Translations under genes and position numbers: made by a program | The notes under the pieces: generated by a model | The model's database searches: none | What the model saw: the letters and a program-made list of their open reading frames with translations, nothing else | Told to the model about the DNA's origin: nothing | Part shown: positions 14,814 to 42,776 of the stretch, piece by piece | How positions within the stretch are numbered: position 1 is the stretch's first letter | How the letters are laid out: the number at the start of each line of letters is the position of its first letter | Origin: Aplysia californica | Lineage: Eukaryota | NCBI RefSeq assembly: GCF_000002075.1 | Contig: NW_004798139.1 | Coordinates: forward strand, 187,334 to 251,333 | Reading direction: 5' to 3' | Length of the DNA: 64,000 nucleotides

Positions 14814-16522
14814 TCACAACTTTGGCTGCATCTTCTTCATGAGCTTCTCCAGTTTCATGGCCGCCCTCATGTCTCCCTTAATCTTGAGCTTGCCCGTCAT
14901 GAAGGAGGTGGTGGCGTTGGCTTTGCCAGCAAACATGTCTTGGAACAGGCCACTGTCCAAGACCATGGTGCAGTCGGCGCCTTCCAGTGTACCTGGAGCA
15001 ACCACTCCTTTCCCAGATTTCAAGTCCAGATAATACTTACCAGAATCAGGGCCTGAACACAGAGAGAGAAAAATTAACCGTATTTCAGCTGGTAGTATTA
15101 CAGATTAGCTGATATATCATAAAGTTGATAAAGAGTTGTTTTTTTTAAATTATTATCATGCTTCAGCTAACATACCATTATTTATATGTATGTAAAAATA
15201 AATCACACTTTAGCTGATATATCATCATTAAGAGGGAGTACGAAGAATAAGATCAAGGGAGACAAAAAAAAATAAAATCAACTATTTTTCAGCTGAGCTC
15301 ATCCTTTCTGTCCCTTTCATTTTAAGCAAGAAAAATTTTGAAATTAAGCAAATGGAGCCCAAAAATGTGAAGTTATGCAATTCTATTAATTTTAACAAAG
15401 AATGATAATAATAATAATGAAGATCATTTCTATAGCGCCCACTCCCGTGTAAACACAGCTTAAGGCGCTTTACATAAATGCATGTACGAACAATATTCAT
15501 GCACGCGACACACACATGCACACTCATACACACACACACACACTCACGCACACATGTGCACACACATAAAGGAAAATAATAAGAAATTATGCAAAAACTG
15601 ATCAAATTTTGCTAAATTATGCAGGGCACATAAAACCACGGGGACAGTCCTTTGTAGCATCTATTCTCTTTTTTCTTCGATGTCGTGGCAATTGTGGTTT
15701 GTCAAGATCTATATTATTATAATAATCCTGGCCTTTTCCTATAACCCATGTGTTCAAGTTCTCTACGTAAGTTAGTCTTGGTCTACCTCTGCCTCTTGCC
15801 ATCTAATTTTCCAGTGAGAGTAAGATGTTTTAGGCCATTATTAATTACAGTGAAACTCGAATGCAACAAACTCAGATTCAACTAAAGAAGCAGGATTCCC
15901 CATTTTTTGATTCATTAAAAGAGCAAATATGATTCAATCAAGCCGCTTGCCAGATGAGCAGCTCCCCCTAATGTGACTTCACTCATATTATTTTTCTTCT
16001 GCAGCTAAATTTATCTGCCCTATTCCAGGGGACTATCAATCGCACCTGCACTGTCAATCATTACGCTCCATGTTGTTTTCAGATTAACTGTTCAGTTTAA
16101 ACCGATTCAACTGAGGTTACAAAAATTAATTGTTGACCCATGTAATAAGGTTCACAGTACATCATTAGCGTATAAAACCAAGCCAACCTCAATTTAAACT
16201 AAACATTAATATTTAAATAATAGCCCATAGTCATAAGTCCACTATTTGCATTTGAAAACTGATAAATTTGGTCAAAATAAACCCTGTAGTCTCACCTGAA
16301 AGGTCAAACTGGAAGCTGGAGTTCATTTCCTTGACCAAGTCCTCAGACAAAAGCCCCTCGAGGGCCTTGAACATCGTCGTAAGTCCTGAGCTCACAGCCG
16401 CCCCGGCTGATGCCTCTTCTCCCGCTTCAGCAGGGTCAGCGTCCAGGAAAAAATCTGGCATCAATTTTGCTCCTGTGATTGTAATTATAAGATGTTTTAC
16501 ACCCCTATCAACACTTTTATTT

Positions 16523-16555
<33 letters not shown>

Positions 16556-19500
16556 GGTTGTTGCTGCTTCAACTTTGACCCTGACTGTCGGAGTCAACCT
16601 GGGCTGAGAAGGATACAGCATTCCTGCAGACAGCCAAAAGCATTACTACTATACCGGAGACACCAGTCTGTACTTCTCACATGATAAAGGAGATGCAAAG
16701 CCTCTTTAAGTTCTAACTAAGAATAAAGTAAGAAAATAGAATTTCAGAATAGGAAAGGGGAGAAAAAACTGAAGTGGCAATATCTGAGTACTATCAAAAC
16801 ATTTTTAAATTTAAACACTATAAATAATTTTTTTTTACATTTACTATTCATGCCATGTACTGCTAAAAATAAAGTTTTTAATTAACTGTACAATGTCATA
16901 TTCAACATGTATCAGAAATACAAATTAGACCATTAATATGATACTAGTAAAAGTTAGGGGGGGGAGAGCATTTATTTCATTTTTTCTTATACATTTGGAA
17001 CTTTTTTAGCTACTGTGCCCAAGTCTAAAAATTCTCCTACCACAAACCTGGAACACAAGAATATTTCTCCATGTCAGTCACTCCAGCTTCAGTAAGAACT
17101 TCATCGTCGATGGCAAAGTTTCCAGTGTACTTGCTGCTGTCCTTAGACAAAATGACGTACGCCGCGTCACTCATGATCTCAACGTCACGGCATTGCTCCT
17201 TCACCTCGCTACCACCGCCCAACATCTCCATCGCAGCTGTGTAGATTGCTACATGGGGACAGACAAACAGAATCACATTTGAGTTGCATTATTGAGAATA
17301 TCATGGAAGGAAAAGAAATCAAATGAGGTAGTGCTTGATGAAGCCCACTTGGGACGCTCAATGTTAAAAACAATCAGGAAATGACAAATGCAGTTTTTGG
17401 GACACCTGAATAGACATAAGGGTCTTGAACATCTAACTCTCACTGGCAAAATTGAGGGCAAGCGAGGCAGGGGTAGGCCCAGAACAACATACTTAGGGAA
17501 CCTAAACAAATGGGTAACAGGGAAAGATCAGGGAAACGTAACTTTTTTGAAAGCATCCAAGCAAAGGAATGAAAGGAGAACCATGATGGCCGATGTCTGT
17601 CACAGATCTGGCACTGGATGAAGATGATGATTGAGAACTCTCATCATGGGCGAAGCATGACTACGTTTTCGGGTCAGAATTCTCTTGCGTTTGGGGGGTG
17701 GGGGGGGAGGCTTTGTCTAGCATACAGGTGCCAATGAGAAGGCTAGTAATGCAGTGGAGCTTTAAAAACAAAGTCTATATTGATGGAGCACTGCACAGAT
17801 GGGACTTTTTCTCTAGAAGCCTATTTTACAGGGGAAGTTAAAAAATTAAACCACCAAAGACCACTTCATTTCAAATTGCATGTCAATCTTTTCTGCATTT
17901 CTACTCATTGAATTTTGACACCATTTATTGAGATGACGTATTTACCTCACTTTACAAAGCATAAATTTTTTTTAAGAAGGCTCAATTGTCCATGACATCA
18001 ATATGATGAGCGGAGTTCTCCTTACCTGTACGTGGCCACAAAGCATTCACAGCCACACGGTCATCCCTAAACTCCTCAGCCATACCCAGAACACACATAG
18101 ACATGCCATACTTGGCCATGGTGTATGCTGGAAAACACAAGAAAAGACATAAATACAGAACTGCATTGCTTTGAGTAAGGAGATAACAGTCATTTAGTGC
18201 ACAGAAAAGAAAAGACAAACAGGCAGACCCCAAAAAAAAGAAAAGAAAAAAAAAAGAAAATTCCAGCAGCACCCTCCAACCATCTACAGTATTAAATAAA
18301 TGTCTGTTCAGGATAACAGAAAGAAGTATAAAGACACAATGATAGCTTTTAGTCAAACTCCGCTAGAAAAAGCAAGGTAGACAAAAATAATACTCTGTGA
18401 AAAAAAAAAGCCAACAACATTATCCAAACAAAAGGAAGACATTTTTTTTTTTTACGAATACTTTACTCTACAGCTTTTTCTATTCATATTCAACTTTTTC
18501 CTATGGAGTTTGGTTTTCCTGTGTCTCGGATGAACTAATTTCTAGAACAATAAAAACATTCAGTGGTGAGAGAAAAACACCTATAGTTTCAACAGTAACT
18601 CAGGGAAAATCTCAATTCTGGCATCAATGACAGGAAAAATGCAATAGAAAAATGCAATAGGAACAAAACAAGTGTACTATATTATGATAAAATGCTCAAT
18701 GACACAGCTCAGTAACCACCCATTAACCATCCAGACTCATATAATACATAAATTCACATTTCTCTGAGGAAGAATTCAAAGTGGTGGGATTTTTCCCTTT
18801 ATTATTTTCATAGAATAATCAGTCACCTACCCACATGACCCTGGAACCATTTTGCACTCATGTTCAGTGGAGGGCTGATGTTGAGAATGTGAGGGTTCTT
18901 ACTCTTCAGGAGATATGGAAGGCACACCTTGGAACTGTAACAGATTCAGTTTATGCAAATTAATGACCATCTTTAACATTTACTCAGGAGTTCAAAGACA
19001 AGTATACACAAAATTGAAACACATATAAATTCATTACCTTGTGAGAAAAATTTTTAATAACATAAGTAAAACACTAGATACAGACAAAATGTATAAACAT
19101 GTAAAATTGAATACACCTGTTGCTCTTTCCAGTTTATCTTTCTTAGAAAGAGAAAAAGTCACAAAACATACACCCACACATCAATAGTAATAGTTGTTTG
19201 TTTGTTTAGTAAAGCAAAAGGGAAAGAAAAGAAGTAAGACCTACAAGGGACGCCCACCAATTACCCATATCAGCAGATCAAAGACATATCTTACCTTAGC
19301 AATGATTTATAATACAATGTTTCAAAAATTAAATTAAACTGATCAAATAGAACTGCTCTTCTTTCCACAATTTTTCTAGATTTCCAAACATCATTTCTTC
19401 TACTCAGTGTGAAGGACAGCAATTTCAACAGTGTGACCAAAGAGACCAAAAGGAGGCTAGACTCACCAGAGATATGTGCCACGGGCATTGATAGAGTTCA

Positions 19501-22500
19501 TCAAGTCATAGGTCTTCATGGGCGTCTTCAGTGTGCCGGTGAGAGAGATGGCGCTAGCATTGTTGATCAACACATCAATTCCTCCAAACTTGGCAACCGT
19601 CTCCTGCACAGCATTCTGAACCTGCTCCTCACTTCTGATGTCCACGATACAAGGCAAAGCTTTGCCACCGGCTTTGTTGACTAGGAAACAAAAAATAAAA
19701 TAAAATAAAATAAGAATAAGAATAAGAATAATAACAAATAGCATTCAGACAGTACAAATTCTTTAAAATTTATAACTCTTTCATAGGATTTTTTCAAGAA
19801 GGAATCCCTGTTATATTATAGATGTATACTATCTACAATGCATAACACTATTTTGATAATAGCAACAGAAGAAACCTTGTAGTAAGGCTCTCAGATTCTT
19901 CACAATCATTTCTGTGGCATTTTACTGAAAAATATTGATCAACAAGTCTCCAAACTAAGATCCCACTGCTTACGATCCCGGTTCGCTTAAGATCCCTCTG
20001 TTTTAAGAAAACAGAATTTTTACGATACAAAATTAATCCCTAAGATCCCGCTCTGATTCACTCTGAAGGTCTACATTAGGCTAAGATCCCGCATTTCAGA
20101 CAAAATTTACCGAACAAAAACCCAGGCGGGCACAGCTGATCAACCAAGAGTGAAAATTTGCGATCATTGAACTACCTGTTGCGTCAAAGATCAACCACTC
20201 GTGTTTATGATCGCATGTGCATTGTAAGTCACAATGAAATGGTACAAAGTTTGCCCCAGACAGGATCACACTGAGGTGTGAATTCGCCAATGCATTTGTT
20301 TTCTCCAAACATCGCATTCGCATCTGAGCTCTCCTCCTAAACTTACATCACACTCTGCGTGGGTAATACCTACAACTTTGCTCCAGTCAGGATCACAATC
20401 TCAAGGGATGGTGAACTCTTCCCCAACCATTGCAGCAGTTGCCTCTACTCCCGAATTTGCAAGACAGACTGAATTTTAATTGGTGTGTTCTACTAATAGG
20501 CCCTGGTGCGGTCACAACGTACTAGTGCATAACGACAAAGGTGGGGGGGGAACTCAGTCAGAGATGGAAAGCTATAAATTTTGGATAGGTAAAGGGGAGG
20601 GGCAACTGGAAAAGCTTAGATCTTGAGACTCACGATAGGATATTAAGAGAAAATGGCATGCTTTAATCGATTGTGATTGGTCATCAAGCAGGTTGATCCC
20701 TCTTTGCTCGCCAAAAGTCATAAACCCACTCAAGGGTCACATCAGTTCATTTTAGAGTGAAGGGAGACCATTTTACTGGTTGTGTACTTGACCAGGATCA
20801 CCACAGATTCTTCCCATGGTGCATCACCTAAGATCCCGTATTTTTCTTGCTCCCGAGCAGTGGGATCCTAGGCGGAGACTAATGTATTATTGTAAAAATG
20901 TGAATTTGTTATCTCCAAGAACACTCAAGCTTTAGAAGTCAGCAAACTTTGGCAGCCATTTTCTCACTAATTTTACACCAGACACCAGGCAACCCCTACC
21001 TGAAATTGCAAATATCTGGACTTCTATTCAAGATAGATGAGTTTTTTCCCTCAAAAACAGGATAAATAAACAAGCTTTATGATTATGGCAATAGCTCCAT
21101 TTGTCCAAAAGTTGAAAAGTGCCTGATTCACCATGTCGTATCATGTATCATCAAAAGAATTCTTACTTTCTTCGGCAGCTGTGTAGATGGTGCCCGGAAG
21201 TTTTGGGTGGGGCTGTGCTGTTTTTGCAGCAATCACAACATTGGCACCATCTTTAGCAACTTTGAGGGCGATGGCTTTTCCAATTCCTCGACTGGCTCCT
21301 GAGATGAAGACTGTCTTGCCCGCGAGCCGTCTGCAAAAGTTCAGAAACTCTGAAATATAAACTTGTTTTTCTATCCAGGTTTATGATATTGGTCAAGTTA
21401 AAAATAGACATGATGATACTTTCATTCTTTATGAGAATTTGGCGCTTGAAGGCAAATATTTTTTTGTGGCAGCACATTGTGTCGCTGACAATTTTTTAAG
21501 TAGAATCTGAATCACTTTCCAAATCAAGATTATCATGTTTATCAGGTCCTTCTACTATAATATCTGTTTTTTCTGCTTTCAGTCTCACTGTCCGTTTCCC
21601 CAAGGCTGCTAATGGTTAATATTTCAGCATGGAAACTGAGTTAGATCTAGATCCAAAATTGTCAAAGAAACAAAAGCTTATTACACGAATCCTAATTTAT
21701 GACAGCATAGATTTAATTCTGGCAGTTCAGGAAAACCATGAATTTAATTCTGGCTGATAGGAGTTAAGAGGCCTTAATACAGTGGAACTTGGATTCAACT
21801 AGCTCGGATTCTTCAATTAGAATCGGATTCAATGAGATGAGACGGATTATGTCACGGATTTCCCGTTTTTTTTCTTCTTTAAAATCAATAAAAATAACCC
21901 GAATCGAACGAGCACTTAAATCAGCAAGCTCGGATTCAACGAGGTCGCTTCCTGGGTGAACACCCCCGAAGACGTGGTTTCCGCACCTTTTACGTTCATT
22001 TAAAAACACATTTGCACGCAGATTTTACTGAAAAACATTGATTAACACTACGCCCCCACAGGACGCCGACCGGAAAAAGTAAGAAGCCGTCCTTTTTCCC
22101 CAATGGGACGCCAATCGATGGCGGTGTGATATAGCAAGTACCGGAGAGAGCGCTACGTTGGTGAAAAGTGTTAAAAGCACGAAAAATGCCCCTCAAGCCA
22201 TGGAAGTCAGCAGACTTTGAGCACTTTGGCAGCCCTCGCTAATTTTACCTCTCAAACCAGATGATCCGCTCACCTCCTTCAATTGCAATATCTCGACTTC
22301 TATTCTTTTTAACATAGAGATGGACATTTTTTACACCAATAACAAGGCAAATTAACAGGTTTTAAGACAATACCAGTAACCTCATTGCCTCAAAACTGAC
22401 GAGCGCCCGATTCCACCATGTCGTGCCACATTGTATTTGAGCATCAGGATTCAAGACCGATGCCTGTGCTCCACCATAGTATTCACGGTCTAGCAATATT

Positions 22501-22984
22501 TTAGGTGATAGTGCATCACCATATACATGCCATTGCCGCAAGAACTATAGTAGTAGGCCCATTATTACTATGACCATGCCACTGCGTTGGCCTACCATTC
22601 ATGATTCTGATTAGTAGAGCTCTATGAAGTAGCTCCTAATAATATACCTAGATTCTTAGTGAGCTTTGAAAGATGATTTAATGTTAAAAGATGTAGATCT
22701 AGAGTCTAGAGTATAGATCTAGATTAGGCTACTACAGAGGTTGACCCCTCTCACTCATACAGGAATACAAGACATTGGACAGTTGAAGGGTAGGCATAGA
22801 TCTACACCCAACGGAGGAAGAAACAGAGAGAAACAGTCAAGTATAGAAGAAGTTGATAAACATAATATAACAATGATAAATCCATCAATGATTCTACCGA
22901 TCAAAACAAAATAGAAAAACCCTCCTGAACTGTTCTAGAATTAGAATCTCTATCTACTAAAACTTACCCTGTATTTGCTGCCAT
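14814..22984 (-). CDS. HSDL2: Hydroxysteroid dehydrogenase-like protein 2 (SDR + C-terminal SCP2 domain), ~405 aa, 8 exons
   Basis: Exons (minus) 22968-22984, 21167-21330, 19467-19680, 18831-18934, 18026-18127, 17048-17248, 16296-16472, 14814-15052; 1218 nt, GT-AG, phases consistent. Motifs: MAANTGRLAGKTVFISGASRGIG, AAKTAQPHPKLPGTIYTAA, NNASAI, HILNISPPL, YTMAKYGMS (YxxxK), SCP2 domain FMTGKLKIKGDM, C-terminal PKL. Confidence 0.97.
15400..15560 (-). mobile_element. SINE 3' end with L2-like tail
   Basis: Minus-strand tgtaaagcgccttaagc..gggcgctatagaaat followed by (ATT)n. Homologous to 27340-27410 plus 27896-27990. Confidence 0.65.
15650..15835 (-). mobile_element. RTE-type LINE 3' fragment
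   Basis: G.RGRGRPRLTYVENLNTWV; homologous to 17360-17630. Confidence 0.65.
17360..17630 (+). mobile_element. RTE-type LINE 3' fragment
   Basis: FLGHLNRHKGLEHLTLTGKIEGKRGRGRPRTTYL is a typical RTE C-terminus, followed by a (GAT)n-like tail. Confidence 0.8.
19940..20884 (-). mobile_element. Tigger-like non-autonomous element, family A copy 2
   Basis: The reverse complement is colinear with 2899-3836; degenerate TIRs; TA at the right end. Confidence 0.85.
22000..22430 (+). mobile_element. Partial copy of ~430 bp MITE family B (also ~20890-21140, 46842-47277, 62288-62716)
   Basis: Shared blocks ctttggcagcc, cacctccttcaattgcaatatctcgacttctatt and the terminal gattccaccatgtcgtgccac. Confidence 0.7.
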
Positions 22985-23197
22985 TCTGCTCTATTCAGAT
23001 TCTACTGCAAGGCTAGATCTAGATGTTGATTATTAATTCTAGGTTTAATGCAACTTGGTTCCTGATACGAGACCAAAGATTTCGGAGGTACCGGTATTTG
23101 ATGTGTTCAGTCAATGCTGCTGACTCGCCCGGTCCCTTAGCTAAAGACGGAAATAAGGTCGAGCCTATGCGTGTTTTGTTCTAGTTCTAGTTCTAGT

Positions 23198-23889
23198 TAT
23201 AAAAAGGGAGCTGACCTTTGTACTTTGTACCAAACTCCTAAAGATTCTAAATTTTAGAACCCAAAGCTTCTGCTAGCCTTGGGGCCTATGACATACAGAA
23301 GGTTCAATTTTAATTTTGGAGGATATCTGAAATAATTATATAATCTTTTCACAACATTTAGAATTGTTTTTAAAGGTGTTGTGCGTTTAAAATGAAAGAT
23401 ATTATAACCTAAAATAGTTATTATTTAGAAAATAGTATTGTTTCGCAAATGAAAATGGGATTGTATAAAAAGTTCAAAGGGTCAGCGACCTATAAACTCA
23501 ACCAGGCCTGTGTTTTGCCTCGGTGATAACGAGTGACAGATCGAAAAATCAAAGGTAAAATTGACTGTATAACAATTTCATGCTTGATTCAATATATATT
23601 CAGGACATATTTCTATCGCCTGGTTTGATGGGGAACTGTGAGCCTTGATTAATCGTAACTAGAATCTAGATCTAGATAAACTCTGGTGCTATGATGCACG
23701 AAGTAGACATGAATCAATGAATGAAATTTGGTCTGCTGCACTTTGTACTCCTACACCACAGTGTTTACAGTTGACCTATTGAGCCTATTGTGACTAGATT
23801 TAGATCTAGGCTAGGCTAGGCTAGTGCTAGGCCTATTGAAAGTTATAGTTATTGCCAGTACCCAGTTCTGTTCAGTTTACCTTTGCACC
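23198..23889. promoter_or_regulatory. Putative shared promoter/enhancer of HSDL2 and the SCPx-type thiolase, with nuclear-receptor DR1/DR2 elements
   Basis: TGACCT-T-TGTACT-T-TGTACC (23212-23231), AGTTCA-AA-GGGTCA (23471-23484), TGCACT-T-TGTACT (23737-23749), TTACCT-T-TGCACC (23877-23889). TATAAA-like boxes at 23198, 23464 and 23491. Starts ~210 bp upstream of the HSDL2 ATG. Confidence 0.55.
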
Positions 23890-24123
23890 CTCAGTTAAAT
23901 CTGAATTACGTTAACACAACTTTGACTTTTTACCTTATTTATATCTAGATTCTAGATCTAAATTTAGATTTAGATCTAGATCTACATGATGTCTCTTTTT
24001 TGTGTCAATGCAAAGAGCGGTTGTTAGAGAGGAGACTTTAAAAAAAATTTATTTATGATGTGGTTGTTTTTACAGTTTATGCCCCCCTCCCCCCCAATAG
24101 AGTTAAGAATATTTAGATAATTA

Positions 24124-24997
24124 GGGGATGGATTGTGTACTTTACCGGACCACCCGTCTCGGCCCGTGATTACTACGCACGCCTAGCCTAACTACGCACT
24201 CATAGTACTCTACGTGCGGACAAAAGGTAGTTCCGCAGGCGATTTCGCGCTCGCACAGCGCAAGCCAGCGGAGAGTGGCGAGGCGAGGTGAGCGAGAGGT
24301 GGTGGTTGAGGGTGGGCAGGGGAATTAACTTTGGTGGACCACCGTGTATCATACCAACAGTGGGGAGGGGGGGGTCAGGGGGGCTTGCCCCCCTGCTGGA
24401 AACTATAATAAAGGAAACACACTAATGCGAAACAATACAATAACATGAGCGGACAGTCGTGTTTACATATTATATCAATGTAACTAACGACAGTGGGGGG
24501 GAGGGGGGGGGGTTTCAGGGGCCCCCCTGGCAACAATAATTTAAAGACACACACACACACACATATAAACAATAACTTGAGCGGACAATCGAGGTAGATA
24601 CTCGCCAAGTCGCGAGTAGGGCCGAGAGGGTTGCAATTATGCAAATGAGCTCTTGTGCGCATCTCTAGCCCTCCATAAATACTTTGCCGGACCAGGAGTA
24701 GGCTAAGCCAGTAGAGTCGTGAACAAATAAGAATAGTGGACCACGTGATTAGACTGACCAATTAGCCTCAAGGTGTCAGGGTTGTGGGTCAAAGGGCACA
24801 GTGGCATGGTCGGGATGACTGAAAAACCCGGTAAGAGACGTCAGTCGATTGTTGGCAGTCGAAGGGTGAGGACGTAGAAAACTGAGTAGGAGAGTGAGTA
24901 GGGGAGCTTGGAAAGGAAGAATAGCGGGCCATTAGGCACCAGGGGCGCCATAGCGAAAGTTGTTCCGACCGGTGGTCCGGTAAAGTACAATCTTACC
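24124..24997. mobile_element. Non-autonomous TIR DNA element
   Basis: Imperfect TIRs share GATTG(TG)TACTTTACCGGACCACC. GG..CC ends. Flanked on both sides by TAATTA (24118-24123, 24998-25003). Confidence 0.8.
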
Positions 24998-25195
24998 TAA
25001 TTATGCCCTAGAAGCCAATTTTGTCTGAGAGGCATAGCCTACAACGTCCCAGTAGAAAGACTGAGATACTTGATAAAAATTCTCCCCATTCAGGAATCAA
25101 TCTGGTCTCCTGCATTCGAAAGCAAAACCCTGACCACTAGATCTAGGTCTACACCACAGACGCTGGATATAGATTCAAGCATATATATATATATA

Positions 25196-26013
25196 CAGTC
25201 AAACCTGTGTAAGACGGCCACCCATTGTCAATGAGAAAAGTGGCCGTATAAGACAGGTGGCCGTCTTAGGCAGGACTGATCTAGATAAAGAAAACAAACC
25301 ATTCCCATCTGAGGTCCCAATCGAAAGTAGCCACAGTATGTTGTCTTTGTTAGTGTTGTTGTTGTTGGTTTGTATTTCGTTTGTAATTTTTATTTTGTCG
25401 CTGATTTTGCACAAGGGGGACAATAAAACTAAATGTATCAGACAAGGAGGACTGAGTGCCATGTTAAAACAAACACATGGGTCGCCACCACTCGGAGAAC
25501 GAGCGACGCTTCTGTCACACGTTCATGTTGACGTCCATTGTTACTTTGTTACAGACTGAGTAAACAGTGACCACTCATCTCACTTACGATTTGTGTATGA
25601 GTTCTGGGCGGGGCTTATGGGTTATGAGGGATCACACGCTTACCTCACCAGCAGCTGAAAATTGGTAGCTATTGGTCAACAGTATGAGGGGCCTACGCAA
25701 AATGATCGGTTGGAGGGACTACCTAACAACAACGACAGGTGATTGAATTATGACGGCTCGCCCACAACGTCAGGGGCCAATGCACAATTTATGACAAAAC
25801 GTAATGGAGTCACTAAGGTGGCCGTCTAAGACAGGTGTTATTGCTTAGTATGATAGGGGTTGTGCGTTAAAATATGGTGGCCGTGGCCGCGTTGGACAGG
25901 TGCCCGTTTTACACAGTTAAATTATATAGAAAAAACGCAAGGGGGGAAATGGAAAGTGGCCGTTTGTACAGGTGGCCGTCTTATAGAGGTGGCCGTCAGG
26001 GCAGGTTCGACTG
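25196..26013. mobile_element. Tigger/pogo-like non-autonomous element
   Basis: TA-CAGTCAAACCTG ... CAGGTTCGACTG-TA, with repeated GTGGCCGT subterminal motifs. Confidence 0.88.
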
Positions 26014-26194
26014 TATATAGAAAACAGAATATAATATTTTCTTAGCCTCTATAGTAACTAAACAATGAAACCAAACCCTAAATTTTGTAAAGACTCTCCA
26101 TATTCAGAAATTACTGATTTTCCCCTTGCTTTACGATCAAACCTGCCCAAAGAAATTTATGTCCCCAAGATGGAAACGTGTCGAATATGTCCCC

Positions 26195-26700
26195 GCTTAG
26201 AAGACAGTGAATCCTTCTGCTATCTTGGGAGTATTATTTTCAAAGAAGGAGGAACAGGTGCTGAAATGAAGTCCTGCATTGGAAAAGCACAGACTAGGCT
26301 GCTTTCATTATATCTATCTTTGAATAGGATTTAGAAGACTAGAGATATCTCACTTTGAACAAAGTTGGGGATCAATTCAAATGTGAAGTCAGTTCTGTTG
26401 TATGGATGTGAGACATGGAACTCATCTCAGACTTGTATAAAGAGGATCCAGATTTTCTTGAACAAGTGTCTAAGAAAGTTACTGAGGATCAGATGGACCG
26501 ACAGGGTCACCAACGAGGAAATGTGAGGAAAACAAAGACAGAGAGATCCCAGCCAGAGATGAGGTAGGATGAAGGCGGTGGCAATGAATTGGAACATATT
26601 CTTAGGAAGTCAGGCATCTGCATAACAAAGAAAGCGCTGGAATGCAATCCATGGGGTAAAAGATCAAGGGGAAGACTTCGTGGAAGCTGGAGAAGGATTC
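26195..26700 (+). mobile_element. Decayed RTE LINE RT C-terminal fragment, continuing at ~28800-28905
   Basis: ESFCYLGSII..GGT..E.KSCIGKA, NSNVKSVLLYGCETW, FLNKCLRKLLRIRWTDRVTNEE; later TWNNIERLAQDRER. Stops and frameshifts present. Confidence 0.85.
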
Positions 26701-27417
26701 TGGCCCCGCATAAAATTGCGTTTTTGAAATACAAAAATTGCAAAAAATTGCAAGGTTAACTGTCTAGAAATGGCAAAAAATTGCAACCTTCCCATCCCAG
26801 GCGCATTATTACGGGCTTAACATTTTTAGTTTAAAAAACATGATAAATTAATTTGAGTACCAGTAGCATTAATATAAAGCAGAACAGCCTTTTAAAAAAT
26901 CATGACCCACAATACAAATTTTATTAACAACACACAAGTACGTTAACAATAAAGTTATCGACCAAATATAATATAATACCGCGTGACCCAAAATAACGGA
27001 ACCCTCGGTATTCGTAATAACTTTTAAATGAAGGCATAAAATTTAACCAAATTTAGTAACTGGGTACTTGGTTCATGCACAGATCTAGAAGTGTAGTATG
27101 AGGTTTAGTTTATTCAATAAAAAAGAAAAGAAATTATGGGTGATTCGAACAAGCAAAATTAGCTTATGCCCCAATCAATTCAGATCCTATTCTATTTTTC
27201 TCTTGATACTTTCGATACACCACAGTAATCTGTATTTAGGTATATTTCAGATATTTTCTTTTTTAAAACCAGTATGGTATTGTTTTAACTCCAAGTCAAA
27301 CCGTAAAATACAGCAATTTTTTTTCTCCATTTAATTGTAATACATGTAATAATGTAGATCATTTCTATAGCGACCACTCGTGTGTGAACGCAGCTTAAGG
27401 CGTTTTACATTTATTGA

Positions 27418-27895
27418 GTGTCTACGTACACGGTAACCGGGCACCTAGTCTAGCGTCAGTGTCTACGTACACGGTAACCGGCAACCGGGCACGTAGTTTC
27501 AGTGTCGTCACGTACACGGTAACCGGGCAGTTCAGAACTCCAAGTTCAGTTTTTATCATCCGGTGTTGCCTTCAACCCCAGCCATCTCCTGACTGTACCT
27601 TTTTAAAAAAATCAACAATCCCCCATTCCAGAACCCTAGCCTATATACTTCGCAGCGCACAGACTTTGAATGAACTTTGGTGACCCCAACCGGTACTCAC
27701 AATGTGATGCGAAAGCACAGGTTCACTGACCAGTCACGATGGCAAACCCGACAAGACGCTTGTACAAGTACAAGTATGACTTTCTTTTTTTTTTCAACAA
27801 GTGACGGCACTGGACAAATATTGATTTATTTTCATTCCGGTTACCGTGCATGTAAATACTGAGACTAGGTGCCCGGCTACCGTGTATGTAGACAC
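27418..27895. mobile_element. MITE with long TIRs (possibly Harbinger-like)
   Basis: GTGTCTACGTACACGGTAACCGGGCACCTAGTCT matches the reverse complement of 27862-27895 with 2 mismatches. Internal repeats of TACACGGTAACCGG. Confidence 0.85.
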
Positions 27896-28120
27896 ATGCA
27901 TCATGTACGAACAATATTCGCGCGCGCGCACGCACGCACACACACACACACCTTACATGCGCACACACATGCACACCACACACACACCTACTTTCTTATC
28001 ACACGCGCACGCTCAATCTTACGCACATTAGATCTCTATGTCTCAGTTTGTGTTGTACCTGTATTCCGGCCTAAATTTCCAGTTATAGCTTTCAGAGTAC
28101 GCCCAGTAGTAGACTAGAGC

Positions 28121-28578
28121 GACCGAAAAAAAATTTTCTCTAAAATTGTCTCCCTTCACCTCCTTTCCTGCTCTCTAGCAATACTCTGGCGTCTGCTTTC
28201 GTCTCCTCTTTCTGCCCCCACCCCCTCACCTCCTTTGCCCCCCTCCTCTGGGCTCCTGACTCTTTCTGCAGCCTTTATACTGCTACTCCTTGACTCCTTC
28301 TTACAGCTGTCTTTCTGCCACACCCCTGATCTTCTGGTAGGAAAGATCTACACCTATAGCCTTCTCGGACAAGGGGGAAAAATCTCGGAGGGCCCATGTG
28401 CAAGTTGCGCACGTTAAAGATCCCTTGGTGGTCTAAAATCGATAAGAGTAGGCTTCGGCCGCCACACGGGCAAAATTCTAAATTTCCTACCAACTAAAAG
28501 TATTAGCTGTGTCCCGCACGCTCATATGACCTTATGCAGTTGTGAGCGCTGTAAAACACTTACCAAAAGAAAAAAAAA
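28121..28578 (+). mobile_element. 5'-truncated SINE with A-rich tail and 10-bp TSD
   Basis: TSD AGACTAGAGC at 28111-28120 and 28579-28588. A-rich tail. Homologous to 8148-8510. Confidence 0.9.
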
Positions 28579-29404
28579 AGACTAGAGCTGGGGCGAAACC
28601 ATGATTTAAGTAGGCCTATCGGCTCTGTACTCGCACCATTTTGAATTTAAAATTCCGTTAAAATTAAAGCGTTGATGTTATTTTGCCTAAAATTGCAAGA
28701 AATTGCGAAAACTGCAAAAAATTGCGGCTTTAATCCGGAACTCGACGAAAAACGTAGCCGCAAGACCGCACTTTCCTGGGGGGCCAGAGAATTACAAAAA
28801 TTGATAGAGGTACAGAAAAGTGAGAAGACATGGAATAACATCGAGAGGCTAGCCCAGGATAGAGAAAGGTTGAAAGTGTTTGTCCGTGGCCAATATACCC
28901 TGGCGCAGGGTGACAAAGGCAATGATAATCTCCCTGCTTCCCCCATGATGAATTCATATAGATAGGCCTATATCTACAATATAGTACCTGTCTAAGATGG
29001 AAACCTTCACAACCCAAAACAGCCCAGTTCTAAGAGAGTCGTTCTGGTAGACAGAGAAGGGGTGGACTCCTAAACATTTATCCGATCCTTAGAAAAGGGG
29101 TAAACGTCCATCTTCTTCAAGGCTGGCAGGTCCTGAGACTTAGATGGCCACACTTCAAAAACTGAAGGATGTGCTTCTTACATTTCGAATTCTTAGTTAT
29201 AGTTAAAAGTGCAATATATTCCTATGCTCTGCTGAGAAGGTGGGCCGCTCCTGTAAAAAAGAAAAATGACCTTTGAATTTCAGAAGGCTCTTGTGAATCT
29301 TAAAGGGAATCATTTTAGGGATTGTTTGTTGCAATGATATAACATACTCTCAGCAAAAAAGTGAAATGGCTTTAAATAAAACTAATTAGGATCCTTACTC
29401 TCTC

Positions 29405-29585
29405 ACTGTTTGTTATTCACAGCCTGAAGTCTGGTATCTATGTCTATCATACCCTTGGCCGTCTTGCTCAACTTTTCTTTTGATCTGTACAGCTTCTCCT
29501 GTAGTGTCAATGTGGTTGGCCACATTTCCTGTCTCAGAAACCCTGTGTGTCCTGCATTGCTGAAGGATGTGTTCCACATTGTCAA
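29405..29585 (-). mobile_element. Extreme 3' fragment of the I/Ingi-like LINE
   Basis: VEHILQQCRTH and LRQEMWPTTLTLQEKLY match 5240-5380 (LRQKMWPTPLTLQEKLY). Confidence 0.8.
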
Positions 29586-29699
29586 AAATAATACTGATGT
29601 TGGGTTTTTTTCGTTTTAATTTGTGTGCAATCATTATTTTAAAGTTATAATTTTATATTTGTTGTTTTCCTTTTTTCAGTGTAAGTTATTGTTGTCCTG

Positions 29700-32121
29700 A
29701 TGAACAAGATGTTGTCGAATCGGACGTATGTCATCGGTGTGGGGATGACACGGTTTTTTAAACCTCTCACCAGAGAATGGGACTATCCTGATATGGCCAG
29801 GGAGTCAGGTTGGTACGTGTAGTTGAAGTTGTGCCAAAGTTTTATTCAAGTCCTTTTGGATGGAATAGATTATGTGTCATCATTCCTCTTTGTAACAGCA
29901 GGCAAGGATACTAGACAGTATTGATTATTCCAACTGGAAAAAATACAATGGTGTTCACAATGAGTTTCCTCTGTAAAATTTGGTGCAAGGCTAGATCACC
30001 TGCCTCAAGTGATTTTCTGTGGCAAAATACAGGGTGATTAAAAAAAAAAAACGCCAAAATCATCACGCGATATTTTAAGAACAAAAAAAACAAACAAAAA
30101 ACAATAGAAGACTGTAGCTTGGACACATGTGTTGTACAAACCTTCAAGTTTTTATTTCCTTGTTTTGCAAGTGCTCAATGCAGCACGGACAGCATCAAGA
30201 CGATATGAGAGTTCCTCCCAAACCCACCTTAGAATGTCTCAGGCCACTGTGTTGATTGTAGCTGTTATTCGATTGTTCTTGCCACCAATATTTGCTTTCT
30301 TTAACATATTTCCACACAAAAAATCACACACAGTGAGGTCCGGAGATCTGGCAGGCCAACTGCAGAGAGCGAGTTCTTTAGCCTACTAACCTACCACTAA
30401 GGCACATTTTCATTCAGTTAAGCAATGTGTACAACACATGTGCCCAAGCTGGAGTTTTCTGTTGGTTTTCATTTTAAAAATATCAGGTGATGGTTTTGGT
30501 GTATTCGTTTTTAATCGCCCTGCATTTCAGAATGAGTTAGAGCTAAGATTTCTATCATCATATAATGTACCTAAAGTAACAAATTGCTTTTAATATTGTG
30601 CTGCTTCTGTAATGAAGTCCGTTGTCATGCCCCAGGTCAAGCTGCTTTGGCAGATGCTGGCATCAGCTACAAGGACGTCCAGGCGGTTGTTGCCAGCTAC
30701 TGCTACGGAGAGCCAACGAGCGGCCAGAGAGCTGTCTATGAGTTGGGCCTAACTGGCGTGCCTGTGTTCAATGTCAACAACAACTGCTCTTCTGGTTCAA
30801 CTGCACTGATGATGGCTCGACGTCTTGTCATGAGCGGGATAGAAGACTGTGTCCTTGCTCTAGGTCAGTTTATAAGCAGGCCCATCTTTCTTCTGAAATT
30901 TCTGCCTTTTTAAAATTTTTAATAGTTCATCTTTCATTGGGAATTTTAATTTAAATATTATTATTATCTACTGATTCTCTTCTCTGTGACAATGGGATAA
31001 ACTGGTCTGAGTAAGTTAATACAGTATAATACGGATAACTCAAATTCGTAGGTAGTTTGAGGGATCCGTAGTTTTAGGGATACGTGAACAGTGTTATGGC
31101 ATCGACTGTCTCAAAGAATCAAGGGAAGCAACGAAGATTAGGTCGGAATAGAGATTTTTCTTTTTTTGGCCATTGTCCTGGATCAGATAGGTTAGATCTG
31201 TGCCTATTGACTTGAATTTGAAATTTGAGAGAATTTGAAATTGACTGATTGAGAATGAGAAACATGATGAGCAAAGCTTTGGAGTTCAATCGGTAATGAG
31301 CCTACCCGTACCAAGACAGTTTCATTGCGCAGGTCAATGTGAGTGGTCTTTAGTCTGCATCAATCGAACTGTGCCTTTTCAAAATTTTCAAAACATAAAA
31401 CAATTTGACAAGATAAACATATCGTAGCAGTAATCAACAACGTGATAATGAAACAATGCAGCACTACTCCGCCTCTCCCACCAAGCGTGCAGTCTTTTTC
31501 AAAGAGGAGTGGGGCGGCTAATCGTGTGATGCACACCCCTTCTCTCGCCTGCTCCACACAAGTCTAGCTAGGTCTAGGAACGAGGCCCCCGCAGAGGGCA
31601 CGCGTGTCGAGCAGTGCGCTAAAAATACCCCACAGCTTGCTGCTTCTGTGGACGGGGAGTATTTCACCAACCTTGCCTTTTTCCATTTTTTGAAATTGTT
31701 AGGCCTATTATTATTTTGCTTCAAGTGCACCTCCAAGGACATTGACTTTAGACCTTTACGGCAGCGTAATTAGTTCGACTATTCCGTGTTTGTATTCAAG
31801 CTTCGCGTAATTTTCTTACAAAGGGGAAAAAATGAAACCGCAGACACAGTTCGACGGATGCGTGATTTCGAGTAGTCTGTGTTCGACCTATCCAGGTTAT
31901 ACTGTATTCAGCCTTCTGAGTCATGGGCAGTTTCAATACAGTTGATTTAATGAAAAGATATGACTAATAAAATGATGGGACTTGCTTCTAAGGTTTTGTA
32001 GGGAGTTTATCCTCACTTGTCAGTGTTGTTGAAAAATTTTGTAACGCAGAAAAAGAAGAGAAAGACAAATGTGTGTGCCTTCACACACATACACCCTTAC
32101 TTACACTCAAACATACACACA

Positions 32122-32165
<44 letters not shown>

Positions 32166-35100
32166 AATGCGTGCGCACGCATATGGGCGCACATGTTACA
32201 AGACCAGAAAACTGGCTGTTAACATGATAATGGTATTAAATGAAGATGAGGCACGCGCGTGGGCAGAGGGGGGCAGAATTTTATTTTATTGTTTAGAACA
32301 ATAAATTAAATGTGTTTTTTTGTTTAAGGTTTGAGAAGTTTATAGAGTAAAACACTGTCATGAATGTTTTCTGTTCAGGGTTTGAGAAGATGGAAGGTGG
32401 ACTGTCAGAAAAATATACCGACCGCACATCTCCCGTCAAGAAACACATGGACCACATGGTCGATCTCGGTGCTAAGCCTGGCCTGATAAGTCCCAACATG
32501 AACGACATGACTTCAGACGTCATCAAACTGTTTGCGTACGCTGCCCAGGAGTACATGAAGAAATACCCGAAAGGTGCGCAAGAAGCTTTGGTGCAGATCG
32601 CCTACAAGAACAGAAAACAGGGTGTGAACAACCCGAGAGCATCTTTCCAGGTATATGATAGTAGTCAGAGCTGTTAAAGTACTTTTAAAAAGGTACTTAA
32701 GTACAAATTTAAGTACAATCTAAAATATATACTTAAGTACAGTAAAAGTACTTTCCTGTAAAATGTACTTGAGTACAAGTACTTTTTTAAAAAGTACTTA
32801 TGAGTACATTTTGAGTACTTTCTGCTAATATGCTAAAACACTTCAAAATGCAAAACATCATATTGAATAACATATCTAGTATATTTGACAAATTCGGCCA
32901 TTTATTACTAATAATGTAAACAGTATACAAAGCATTTGAATATACGCACTGAACGTAGGTGGAAATTGTCAGTGAAATTGAAAAAAAAAACCCAGCAAAC
33001 AAACAGACGCAACTAGTGAGTAAGTGATATTATGAATAGAATTTGTTTGAGCAAGACAATATGATCTAATGTAAGTCAGTCCTAGGGGTCGGAAAGAACT
33101 TTTTTCCTCAAATAAGCGCCCCTGGTTTATATATTTATACATGTAAGCGGCAGCAGATTCGGGAGTCTCAAAAGTACTCACCCATCTGTTGGACGGAGTT
33201 TCTTTGGCGTACGCTAAAGTGTGGCATTGAGGAAAATATGTAAACTTTTTAATGTTTTAAGTGTATGCTAAGAATAAACAAGGTAATGACACTCCTGAAA
33301 TCGGGAAAATCTGCAAATAAGCCGCATCATTGTTTAAGTTGCAGGGTTTCAAGCCGAAGAAAAAAGTCGCTGCTTATAGCCCGTAATTTATGGTACTCTT
33401 TTTTTTCAATACTTTCAGCTGTATAATTTAATTCTCATAATACATACAAAACCAATGAATTAAAAAGTTAACAAACAAATAAATTAATAAATAAACATAC
33501 TAAATTATTCCTTATTTCAGAAAGAGATGGATATGAAGACAATTGCCACCAAAGCCATGCTGTGCCCACCTATCACGTTTGGTATGACAGCTGCTACAGC
33601 AGATGGGAGCGCAGCCGTTATTGTGTGCAGTGAGAACTTTGTGAAAAAACATAAGCTACAGGACAGGGCAGTGGAGATCTTAGCACAGAATATGGTATGA
33701 TGGAAGATGTATGTAAAAAAAAAAAAAAAAAATTACGCTTTTTATTTGTCCCGAAAGGGCACTTTGTTTTACAATGGCAAACATACATTTACGTATATAA
33801 ATACATAATAATGAATACGTACATACATAAATACATGCAGAAATACACACATGAATACACAATACTACACAAATACAAAATAGTTTACACACATGCCACT
33901 GTCGGTTGCCACTGGGCAGCGCCCTGTATTTTGAGCTAGGGTTGTCGTGTCTTGCTCAAGGACACACCCCAGTGACCACCCATCTGATCCCCGTATCACC
34001 GACACTTGCTTGACATTACTTGAGTCAAAACTCACTACTTACTTAGCCTCTGTTTGTGTGATAAGTGAATATGTGTGTGTGTGTGTATTTTTATGTTGGT
34101 TAGTGTCTGTGTTCATATCTGTGTGGATGAATAAGTGTATTTGTGCTTGTGAGTGAGTGTGTGTGTTTGTTTGTGTGTGTGTGTGTGTGTTTATTTTATT
34201 GTTTATATTAACAATTTTGTAAAACATCATAGACTGCAGTAAAACAGTTGTGATCCTTATTTCGAGTAGGCTACAGTGCCATAATACATTTATTCTACCT
34301 TAGTGTGTGTGTTTGTTGTATGCGGTGAGTCAATAATAGTTTGTCAAAAAAAATTAATATGTGGAATAACAACCCATTCTTCAAGACAGAGTAACAGAGA
34401 TTGTGACATTGTCTAATGCAGTGTGTGTTTGTTAGTGTGTGTTTGTTTTTGTTACATATTAATGTCTCTGGATTATTTTCCCTAGAGGCTTCTTTTCATG
34501 AACTTAAATTCATGCACAATGCTTGAGGAAGCAGTTCTTTACAGGGAAGGGGAAAGGCAGGGGGGGGGGGTGCTGCTAGATTGGAGAGAGAGATATAGAA
34601 AAGTAGAGAGATGGCGAAAGAGAGAGAGTGTCTTGGGTAGAGATCAGTGATTGTCAGTTATTTGCATTTGATTTTTTGTTCTAAGAGAGCATTGATAAGT
34701 GAAAAAAAATTATGACATATCCGCTGAAGTCTTTTAGATGATTTCAAACTACAACATTTCAGGTCACAGATCTACCAAATTCATTTGAGCGATCGTTCAT
34801 GGATTTGAGTGGTTATTCCATGGCAAGAGAGGCTGCCAAGAAGTGTTTTAACGAAACAAAATTGTGTCCCAAAGATGTTGATGTATTTGAGGTAAGAGAT
34901 ACATTAGTTGTAAAGTTTGGATATATTGGATTTCATTGTAAGCATGGGGAATTTTTAAAAATATTTGTATCATTCACTTCATGGTGTTTGGTTTTAGTTC
35001 TTAGAGCAAAGAAATAAGAACTGCCATTACGAAAATGAATAAACTCTGATTTTGTTGTTATGTCTGTTTTCGCTATTTTATTCATGCAAATATGGCATCA

Positions 35101-37658
35101 AGAAATTGAAATGTAACTAAGATTATAACTAAAAAGCAGTATCTTGTTGTTTTGAGGGCAAGGGAATAATAGATTTTCTCTTCTTGGTTGTGTCGTGTTG
35201 TTAATCATCAAGTGTTACATTAATAATAATAATAATGATGATATATGACATCTATATTGCGCTCGAGCGCTTTACAAATACAATAACGCATAAATTTGTT
35301 TGCCTTGTTCCCCAGGTCCACGACTGTTTTTCCTGCAATGAGCTCTTCATGTATGAGGCTCTAGGACTGTGTCCTGAGGGGACTGGTGTGTCTTTGGTGG
35401 AAAATTCTGAGTGGAAAACCAATAGGAATGGTGGAGAGTTATTGTACTTGGACAAGAAATGGGTTGTCAACCCTTCTGGAGGTCTGGAGTCAAAAGGCCA
35501 CCCAATAGGAGCATCAGGTATTATTACCAGAATCATTACATTTTAGTGGGGTAAAAATAGCTTCAGGAGTAGTTGGCATCTTCACATATTATGGAAGCTA
35601 GAGTTTCATTTTTTTTTAAAATTTTAATTAGGGTTGTTTTTGTTGTGTTTTTTTTTGGGGGGGGGAGATGTTAGTATTTCTTCGTGGGAATCTGTGCAAG
35701 TAGCCTCACAGTTGCATGCAAAAGATGTAAGTTTAATTCCTAAGGAGAGAAGTTTTTTAATTGAGTCTCCAGTTGTCTGCTTTGATGTTGTACTCCACTG
35801 TGTCTGGGATGGTTCTGACATGTTGGATTGAAATAACTTGTCTCTTTTTTGTTTTTAATTGTGTTAATGGAGACCAAAATCGTTCACTGTTACAGTCGAA
35901 CCTACCTTAACGAAAACCTGTATGAAAGAGAAACCTCTCTTAACAGAATCTCCCCGCTCCCTCCTTGATATACTCCTCTTTAATTACCTGTATAAAACCG
36001 GAAACCTGTCCAACGCGGAAACGGAAAGAAAAATCCGCACCCTTCCAAGGATTTTACCTATCTAAGACGGAAAATGCTTTGCCCGTTCAGTCCTGATTTG
36101 AAACAAAACTCGCAAGTTTGGTTCCGTCCGCCGGCTCTAAACTTAACGCTATGCTGCCGGGCGAGGAAGGGGAGTATGGGTGCATTTTGAGGGTAGATGT
36201 TACCCCATCTATGAGCCTTGAGCGATGAAGATGGTCAGGGTGGTGTAGGTGTGAAATCTCACGAGTGCCAGTAAAAGTGGCGCTCTAGCACGGAAACTTT
36301 CTTTGGTAGCCAGAGGCCAGAGGTGTGAAATTAGTTTGACCAATGCCTGCTGCCCTGATCATACAACCAGCGAAGAAAAGAGTTCCTCAAATCGTTGTTA
36401 TGGCAGTGAGGGGTGGCATTGGTTGACTGTGCTTATTACACTGATGGGTGGAGCTAAGGGTGAAAGCAAAGAAGATGTTCAAATGTTTCTGTTTTTAGTA
36501 GGTCAAACAGTGGTCCTATGAAATGCAAGCACTTGTGGTAATTGGATAAATAAGAATGATGCATGTCATTATCAGAGAGGATAGCAGTGCCGACTGGACA
36601 AGCGACCCTTGATCCCACCAGCTGAGCCTTTGAAACACACCCCCCCCCCTACTATCTCCCCACTAAATTCCCCTGTCTAAGACGTAATTTTTTTCTGGCT
36701 CCCTTGCGATTCCGTCTTACACAGGTTCAACTGTATTTAGTAAATTGTTTTTTCAAAATAATTTCAGCAGGAATTTGATCACCGTAAATTTTTTGTATGG
36801 TATTCAGGAAATATTTTTTGTTTTAAGTGTAGCCTGCTGAGAAGCTTTACTAGTCTGTTAAGTTTCTTTTAAAATGGCTTTGTGCTTGGATTTGGCCAAT
36901 GGACGTTATGTTTGTTTGAAATTTTTTCTGTCAACTGCTCTCAGATTCATTTGTACCAGTATGGAAAATTTGATCTATTTTTCAGTGGTTTGCATTTATT
37001 TAGGCTTGGGTTTTTGTAGATTTCCTTCAACTTATACTTTGTTGAACTTCCCAATGAGGATGAAACTTGTCTAATGTAATTTTGTTTGTCTCGTCCTTTT
37101 TTTTCCCCAACTTATCATTCCTCAGATATAAATGAATTTGATAGCAGCTAATGCATTGGATGGAAAAATGCAAAACAGATACAATAAAGTTACAGTAATC
37201 AAACCCCCTCCCCTCAATTCTTTTTTTCCGTACTATCCTTTCTCTCAAGTCTTATCCTGTGTTGGTTTATATCATCCAAAGTTTTCATCTTTTGTTTTCC
37301 CACGGGTTTTATCTTATTTCATCTTGTCTTCTCATTTATTTTCTCTCCTCTTTGATTTGTCTGTTTTCCGTTCTCAAGGTTTATCTCACCTTTGTTTTTT
37401 CTCATTGTTTTTAATCTCACCTTTGCTTTACCTAATCTTTTTTCCTAAGTTTTAAATCATCTTTACTTTATTTTTATATGATTGCTGTTCCCAGGTCTGG
37501 GCCAGTGTGCGGAGCTGGTATGGCAGTTGCGAGGAGAGGCAGACAAAAGACAGGTGGAGGGTGCTAAGGTCGCCATGCAACACAACTTTGGCATTGGGGG
37601 AGCTGCTGTTGTCACCATGTATGGAAAAGCCGATCAAAAGTTGCTCTCCAGGATTTGA
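29700..37658 (+). CDS. SCPx-type (SCP2-thiolase type-1) peroxisomal 3-ketoacyl-CoA thiolase lacking the SCP2 domain, ~425 aa, 7 coding exons
   Basis: Exons 29700-29808, 30636-30863, 32379-32650, 33521-33694, 34763-34891, 35316-35517, 37495-37658; 1278 nt, GT-AG. An in-frame TAA lies 18 nt before the ATG and an acceptor at 29679 implies a 5'UTR intron. Motifs: [20 protein letters not shown] (nucleophile Cys), [41 protein letters not shown]-terminal SRI. Confidence 0.95.
31022..31904. mobile_element. Tigger/pogo-like non-autonomous element
   Basis: TA-CAGTATAATACGGATA ... TATCCAGGTTATACTG-TA. Confidence 0.8.
32115..32165. repeat. (CA)n microsatellite
   Basis: CA run in thiolase coding intron 2. 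Confidence 0.9.
32666..33188. mobile_element. Decayed hAT-like MITE with AAGTAC/AGTACT arrays
   Basis: CAG..AGTACT start and AGTACTCACCCATCTG end. More than 10 AGTAC repeats in 32675-32820. No clear TSD. Confidence 0.5.
35893..36733. mobile_element. Tigger/pogo-like non-autonomous element
   Basis: TA-CAGTCGAACCT ... AGGTTCAACTG-TA. Confidence 0.82.

Positions 37659-42741: not shown

Positions 42742-42776
<35 letters not shown>

Follow-up and report, generated by a model that had tools for sequence, protein, structure and literature searches.

HADHA and HADHB lie head-to-head and their products form one complex, and in Caenorhabditis elegans the thiolase DAF-22 is reportedly partnered with DHS-28. 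HADHA and HADHB, a dehydrogenase-thiolase pair, are conserved and co-expressed neighbours (r 0.79; PMC3514665). In vertebrate SCPx a thiolase is fused to an SCP2 domain, from which it is cleaved inside peroxisomes, and the thiolase's need for that domain is ascribed to peroxisomal targeting (PMC7682436). HSDL2, an SDR joined to an SCP2 domain, has NADP/H, sterol derivatives and fatty acids as ligands and influences bile acids in mice; despite its connection with bile acids and several cancers, its substrate is unknown (PMC11141617). Here we describe a 64,000-nucleotide stretch of the Aplysia californica genome (contig NW_004798139.1, positions 187,334 to 251,333; hereafter the window, in whose numbering positions are given), in which HSDL2 and a thiolase gene that encodes no SCP2 domain stand head-to-head with overlapping first exons. 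By sequence, the thiolase is a separate ancient paralogue, neither a truncated SCPx nor an SCPx orthologue, and the two genes are likely neighbours in most of the snails and clams that we checked.

Several described systems resemble this locus in part. HADHA-HADHB is the closest genomic precedent, a dehydrogenase-bearing gene and a thiolase gene being kept as neighbours in both cases; it differs in that its products belong to other enzyme families and are mitochondrial (the trifunctional protein), whereas the linkage reported here has been demonstrated, by proxy, within molluscs only. The SCP2-thiolase type-1 class, represented by the thiolase part of zebrafish SCPx (6HRV/6HSP), shares with the window thiolase the CxS, HDCF, GHP and HNxG motifs and the absence of CxG, and the two agree closely in sequence (E 7e-130) and, for the predicted model, in fold (TM-score 0.87/0.94, 50% identity). 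Zebrafish SCPx, however, has an SCP2 domain, while the window thiolase has none and instead carries its own ending resembling a type 1 peroxisomal targeting signal (PTS1), two insertions and a changed LQCCP loop; it is encoded by seven coding exons, compared with 18 exons for the SCPx of the same genome, and falls in a separate pan-eukaryotic clade, called the long-loop clade below. C. elegans DAF-22 is, like the window thiolase, an SCP2-less SCPx-type animal thiolase, but the Haemonchus DAF-22 includes an SCP2 domain, and its gene resembles that of human SCPx in having 16 exons (PMC4966567), and no named nematode protein stood in the long-loop clade among the best 120 of 7,999 scored candidates. 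DAF-22 thus appears to be derived from the canonical SCPx line, and the parallel with DAF-22 drawn in a preliminary description of the window is probably an analogy only. Vertebrate HSDL2 matches the window HSDL2 in its SDR, SCP2 domain and PTS1-like end, yet it lies in another syntenic block (PMC8851819, supplement 4, five vertebrates), and those 120 candidates included no named vertebrate protein of the thiolase clade. Within the limited literature covered, we found no report of an HSDL2-thiolase pair or of the long-loop clade and no paper joining HSDL2, mollusc and thiolase; the conserved-pair list of PMC3514665 lies outside that coverage and may bear on novelty.

Results

Gene structure

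Both genes are real and intact, as the preliminary description had proposed for a divergent HSDL2 (SDR plus SCP2) and a thiolase ending after its thiolase domain. HSDL2 has eight coding exons on the minus strand (22984 to 14814) with GT-AG introns throughout and encodes 405 residues ending in MQPKL, with a classical SDR at the N-terminus (SGASRGIG, NNA and the catalytic residues S152-Y168-K172) and SCP2 at the C-terminus. This combination of an N-terminal SDR with its S-Y-K residues and a C-terminal SCP2 is that of HSDL2, the name borne by the locus's database isoform; G-x-S-R-G-I-G, NNA, S152/Y168/K172 and A-K-T are invariant or almost so in 86 aligned HSDL2 relatives. A genome search with HSDL2 exon 3 returned its own copy and one weak SDR match.

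The thiolase gene has seven coding exons on the plus strand (29700-37658), all GT-AG, and its 425-residue product, ending in LLSRI, is identical to database protein P0001 (source label Aplysia californica). Its motifs are NNNCSSG with C87, HDCF at 306, GHP at 365 and HNFG at 401, and the CxS nucleophile motif is kept across the alignment of relatives. HDCF replaces NEAF, GHP is present and CxG is absent, which is the type-1 signature according to PMC7682436. A predicted model (predicted local distance difference test score, pLDDT, 95.4) gave zebrafish SCP2-thiolase 6HRV as its best match (E 3.6e-53), with 6HRV/6HSP/6HSJ making up the top five, so that the predicted fold is that of an SCP2-thiolase type-1; a search of the ESM Atlas returned generic thiolase clusters only. 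Judged by sequence and model together, the enzyme is a putative member of this class that would work like SCPx. Exon 3 of the thiolase found a single copy in the genome, at this locus only.

The C-terminal SCP2 domain of an SCPx is absent. A profile search found no SCP2 exon between the thiolase stop and the next gene (37,658-45,100; best E 5.2); as a positive control, the same profile recovered three of the four SCP2-region exons of the SCPx gene elsewhere in the genome at E 2e-8 or better. Two transcript contigs have lengths consistent, by arithmetic and with no displayed joint, with splicing through the thiolase stop and ending at a homopolymer just behind it. The features of both genes are as follows (UTR, untranslated region).

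13600..14813, minus strand: HSDL2 3' UTR; its reach to at least about 13,600 is estimated from the lengths of two contigs
14814..15052, minus strand: HSDL2 last exon, encoding the PKL end and the bulk of the SCP2 domain
22984-22968, 21330-21167, 19680-19467, 18934-18831, 18127-18026, 17248-17048, 16472-16296, 15052-14814, minus strand: HSDL2 coding exons; exon 1-2 joint in spliced contig X7
22968..23186, minus strand: HSDL2 exon 1 and 5' UTR in contig X7; it reaches at least to 23,186, the true start lying there or further out
23126..23157, plus strand: 3' part seen of thiolase non-coding exon 1a (contig X6), within HSDL2 exon 1 on the opposite strand
23040..23554, plus strand: thiolase non-coding exon 1b (contigs X5/X18); last 30 bases seen, start at 23,040 estimated from transcript-contig size, assuming no extra intron
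23555..29679, plus strand: thiolase intron 1, with high-copy repeats
29680..37658, plus strand: thiolase gene, long-loop SCP2-thiolase type-1; coding exons 29700-29808 (exon start 29,680), 30636-30863, 32379-32650, 33521-33694, 34763-34891, 35316-35517, 37495-37658
37659..39508, plus strand: thiolase 3' UTR; contigs cover 37,822-39,500 piecewise, ATTAAA at 39,503

The database HSDL2 isoform X2 from this locus (P0066, 389 residues) is missing the first 16 residues of exon 7 (16,472-16,425), apparently through a second acceptor. The Pinctada HSDL2 record P0065 is a doubled model of 745 residues, probably two tandem genes merged.

Overlapping first exons

The 6.7 kb between the two start codons is not intergenic, since in spliced contigs the thiolase first exons overlap HSDL2 exon 1. 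None of the runs found to contain these sequences was recorded as RNA; the contigs were taken as RNA on the grounds that GT-AG introns are skipped, and strand was read from splice signals; they are in themselves silent on start sites, strand and expression level, and their depth was not used for ranking genes. Thiolase contigs from three of four runs (three studies) join 29,808 to 30,636 and have loose ends before the acceptor at 29,680. The loose ends of X5 and X18 map to 23,523-23,552, next to a donor GT at 23,555, and that of X6 to 23,126-23,155, next to a donor GT at 23,158, while the HSDL2 contig X7 spans 23,186 through exon 1 into exon 2. One of the two thiolase donors therefore lies inside HSDL2 exon 1 and the other about 370 bases past the seen end of that exon; both candidate leaders contain several upstream ATGs. 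The first exons of the two genes overlap at about 23,040-23,186, and through this overlap the divergent 5' ends lie less than 1 kb apart, as in bidirectional pairs. The X6 contig, with 5,231 nucleotides of which 2,596 precede the acceptor, has by arithmetic a size that fits both mRNAs joined 5' to 5', and would put the HSDL2 end near 13,607, compared with 13,644 implied by X7.

Because the thiolase first exons overlap HSDL2 exon 1, the repeats between the genes lie in thiolase intron 1. These repeats are what the earlier view took as transposon debris, and the linkage that it foresaw, with a shared promoter region, turns out to be tighter than had been seen. A single promoter region is very probably shared by HSDL2 and the thiolase.

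Probable linkage in other molluscs

Linkage elsewhere was read from locus tags, accession numbers and same-size source sequences, not from direct searches of other eukaryote genomes, in 20 other mollusc species with both genes identified; species with one gene in the tables, for example Lymnaea, Patella, Littorina, Pomacea, Mya, Biomphalaria, Elysia, Mytilus and Mercenaria, were left out of the count. The accessions or tags of the two genes are at most 2 apart in 12 of the 20 species and at most 9 apart in 15, and 18 of the 20 have either a same-size source sequence or accessions at most 9 apart, so that the predicted mollusc microsynteny is borne out in this order.

At most 2 apart: Lottia, Haliotis rufescens, H. 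rubra, Batillaria, Bulinus, Pecten, Ylistrum, Argopecten, Mizuhopecten, Sinanodonta, Mactra, Magallana
At most 9 apart: Babylonia, Tegillarca, Crassostrea virginica
Same-size source sequence, larger gap: H. cracherodii 49, H. asinina 450, Pinctada 996
Genes on different contigs: Physella, Plakobranchus

The 12 closest cases presumably stand for about eight major gastropod and bivalve lineages. The gap series among the abalones (1, 1, 49, 450) suggests that the numbering of newer releases need not follow gene order. On this evidence the linkage of HSDL2 and the thiolase is very probably mollusc-wide. Bulinus has two thiolase records (P0006/P0198), 1 and 8 numbers from HSDL2.

Relationships of the thiolase

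In a corrected tree the thiolase falls inside a clade (Shimodaira-Hasegawa-like approximate likelihood ratio test, SH-aLRT, 99) of molluscs, an annelid, a brachiopod, a nemertean, cnidarians, a sponge, two fungi and protists. The tree was a quick one under one model, with 41 rows (40 of 80 database rows plus the Aplysia SCPx) and no DAF-22 row; with these rows, placing the 12 animal long-loop proteins and the Aplysia SCPx in one clade was rejected by the approximately unbiased test (p-AU 1e-27), and the thiolase does not group with canonical animal SCPx. The clade is set apart by two insertions (about 143-160 and 334-345) and the changed LQCCP loop; including this loop, 23 columns differ between long-loop and short-loop proteins at 80% or more on both sides (84 versus 63 rows), and general thiolase anatomy suggests that these columns may touch the substrate pocket. 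Of 7,999 candidates scored, the best 120 included no named chordate, echinoderm, arthropod or nematode member of the clade, a negative that holds for this query, the end of the 120 already consisting of short-loop bacterial proteins and several clade rows being unnamed. Databases label these enzymes 'sterol carrier protein 2-like' despite their having no SCP2 domain, and the apparent absence of the long-loop thiolase from the usual model animals would explain why the clade has been overlooked.

P0045, the sister protein of the clade in the tree, has an SCP2 domain. Four long-loop relatives, probably protist (P0205, P0206, P0221, P0234), are fused to an RPE65/carotenoid-oxygenase domain; three of them are in the tree, all inside the clade, and the three full-length fusions end in SKL or SRL. 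We found no literature on a thiolase-carotenoid-oxygenase fusion within the limited coverage. Long-loop thiolases without PTS1-like ends also occur (P0367-P0373, P0377, P0378, and L086:1,922-3,055, an intronless open reading frame on a 3 kb metagenome contig with an uninformative neighbour), and are possibly a prokaryotic branch of the clade. In a sample of 401 genomes of one bacterial phylum, all 52 matches had short-loop lengths.

Other genes of this kind are present in Aplysia. A canonical SCPx-SCP2 fusion lies at G000:C12:192,015-219,748 (minus strand, 18 exons, 532 residues, ending in ARL) and is 50% identical to the window thiolase; an HSD17B4-like gene (MaoC plus SCP2, ending in SKM) lies at G000:C130:609,900-616,200; and a further SCP2-domain gene, which we take to be STOML1-like, lies at G000:C930:45,167-45,313. 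The six-frame Pfam search of the genome for SCP2 was not exhaustive: it missed the SCP2 domain of the SCPx gene because the exons are small.

Putative peroxisomal targeting signals

The C-terminal tripeptides of HSDL2 (PKL) and of the thiolase (SRI) are both PTS1-like, and we take them to be weaker variants of the signal. Orthologues mostly end in SKL, AKL or ARL. PTS1-like ends, as pointed out for this locus in the preliminary description, are conserved in 71 of 85 long-loop thiolases and in 32 of 36 named mollusc HSDL2 proteins, and both products likely reach peroxisomes, to judge from these termini. All four mollusc HSDL2 proteins without such an end are from sacoglossans (P0068, P0072, P0080, P0087). 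Plakobranchus, the sole sacoglossan with both genes in the tables, has a 209-residue thiolase fragment on another contig than HSDL2, and no Elysia thiolase of the long-loop clade was among the candidates listed. Loss of PTS1 and gene separation may therefore coincide in a sacoglossan, in one lineage and as one event at most, perhaps through draft annotation.

Discussion

Our results suggest that HSDL2 and the thiolase likely work together on branched dietary lipids. More specifically, the two would be co-regulated and serve an auxiliary peroxisomal pathway that shortens methyl-branched acyl-CoAs (isoprenoid or sterol side-chain), a reading that we rate a little short of an even chance, as we do the simpler statement that both act in the same pathway. 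One bidirectional promoter at about 23.0-23.6 kb would drive both genes, the linkage having been kept since before the gastropod-bivalve split. Both proteins would enter peroxisomes through PTS1, HSDL2 probably entering mitochondria too, as in mammals. There, the thiolase would use C87, together with the HDCF cysteine and the GHP histidine, to cleave 3-oxoacyl-CoA; the two clade-specific insertions and the LQCCP loop could give it a substrate range other than that of the SCPx encoded in the same genome. HSDL2, as an NADP(H)-binding SDR, may carry out a supporting redox reaction on lipids of the same class, a role that fits it better than the core dehydrogenase step because it binds NADP/H, sterol derivatives and fatty acids (PMC11141617); the standard NAD-dependent 3-hydroxyacyl-CoA dehydrogenase step would come from the HSD17B4-like gene, and no physical complex of HSDL2 and the thiolase would be needed. 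The proposed isoprenoid or sterol side-chain substrate derives from the carotenoid-oxygenase fusions, from the automatic source names of three bacterial HSDL2 relatives, labelled 'citronellol/citronellal dehydrogenase', and from the mouse bile-acid phenotype. That the substrate is an isoprenoid or apocarotenoid nevertheless seems doubtful to us.

A number of observations weigh against this proposal. HSDL2 is present in arthropods, echinoderms, a tunicate and a nematode, where the search above found no named long-loop thiolase, and because it persists in these phyla it does not need this thiolase as a partner. It is mainly mitochondrial in mammals (PMC11141617), although PMC3583843 places human HSDL2 in both mitochondria and peroxisomes. 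A second, unrelated-looking head-to-head pair lies 12 kb off in the window, and because of it a shared function cannot be read from the head-to-head arrangement by itself. Linkage was judged indirectly, from accession order, which says nothing of orientation and has no background rate of neighbour conservation in molluscs to be set against; four scallops and two abalones are among the 12 close cases, the genes are separated in Physella and Plakobranchus (different contigs), and the gap in Pinctada is 996. The nemerteans Lineus and Tubulanus have same-size source sequences but accession gaps of 277 and 696, which are compatible with adjacency or with its absence and, because numbering need not follow gene order, neither show nor exclude it; annelid, brachiopod, bryozoan, cnidarian and sponge species entered the comparison with a thiolase accession only. 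In bacteria, an SCPx-type thiolase was present at none of 17 HSDL2-type loci and an HSDL2-type SDR at none of 80 thiolase loci (42 of them at least 6 kb), and the two families were adjacent in none of the eight genomes that have members of both, where the smallest distance was about 50 kb; around bacterial HSDL2-type SDRs the neighbouring genes varied, two of 17 loci having an acyl-CoA dehydrogenase and two an enoyl-CoA hydratase (36 picked open reading frames scanned). Co-expression is also unsupported by three raw poly(A) RNA runs, which had almost no depth over the exons of either gene.

Many of these points would be expected if the linkage were that of bystanders, which came under one bidirectional promoter early in mollusc or spiralian history, have been hard to part since and catalyse unrelated reactions, with HSDL2 mostly mitochondrial and the thiolase peroxisomal. 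The persistence of HSDL2 without a long-loop thiolase in many phyla, its mainly mitochondrial location in mammals, the lack of linkage in bacteria and the seemingly unrelated pair next door all favour this explanation, as does the general enrichment of conserved gene pairs for head-to-head orientation (PMC3514665). Yet both are SCP2/SCPx-type lipid genes, which are few, and each has kept a PTS1-like end, a combination that is unlikely in a random pair, and PTS1 loss and separation coincide in one sacoglossan (one event at most, in a draft assembly). We therefore regard mere positional linkage as a real possibility, if not a probable one. The overlap of the first exons could also serve reciprocal control, in which interference would confine the two genes to different cells or states and the two thiolase first exons would tune the overlap. 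The placement of one thiolase donor in HSDL2 exon 1 and of the other about 370 bases beyond, and the several upstream ATGs in both candidate leaders, would fit such an arrangement, but a single contig from one run appears, from its length, to contain both mRNAs, so that both would have been present in one sample, and conserved head-to-head pairs tend toward positive co-expression (PMC3514665); we consider reciprocal control highly improbable.

The preliminary description had instead seen the thiolase as an SCPx that lost its SCP2 domain and borrows that of HSDL2, an origin contradicted by its position as a separate ancient paralogue in the tree. A version of this idea, in which HSDL2 binds the thiolase and lends it SCP2, rebuilding an SCPx-like unit much as HADHA/HADHB form one enzyme, draws on the complementary domains, the shared promoter region and the conserved linkage, and also on the sister protein P0045, whose SCP2 domain means that the ancestor of the clade may have had one. 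Against it, clade members lack SCP2 from protists to molluscs, a condition far older than the demonstrated linkage, and supply in trans is unnecessary because the genome holds both the SCPx-SCP2 fusion and the HSD17B4-like gene as other sources of SCP2. The window thiolase, moreover, has its own PTS1-like end, whereas the SCPx thiolase is cleaved from an SCP2 domain that serves targeting (PMC7682436). We judge lending of the domain to be very unlikely.

If the proposed joint route is taken to its furthest extent, animals outside the vertebrate and arthropod lines would keep a second, unrecognised peroxisomal thiolase of pan-eukaryotic age for carotenoid- or terpene-derived branched acyl-CoAs, with HSDL2 as its dedicated redox partner, the two sharing a promoter throughout the molluscs and possibly in all spiralians. 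This is rather unlikely in our estimation, but it would, if true, name the substrate class of human HSDL2. Regardless of that extension, a neighbour on a shared promoter across snails and clams offers a concrete, testable partner and pathway for HSDL2; and were the link only positional, there would still be a conserved, well-documented gene pair in head-to-head layout and an enzyme subfamily with a misleading name.

Neighbouring genes in the window

The second head-to-head pair consists of PIGW (GWT1 family) on the plus strand, which runs from about 2,555 to 10,104, and a gene on the minus strand whose start is at about 2,105 (window 1,896-2,731), their start codons being about 450 bases apart. 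The minus-strand partner is presumably LMBRD1-like to judge from its first exon, which gave no Pfam hit. On the other side, a broken element of the LINE (long interspersed nuclear element) type with endonuclease and reverse transcriptase fragments (41,377-43,920) lies between the thiolase 3' UTR and the next gene, a plus-strand multi-exon gene from 45,057 to about 60,000 with a WD40 exon and cyclophilin-like stretches, which we take to be PPWD1-like.

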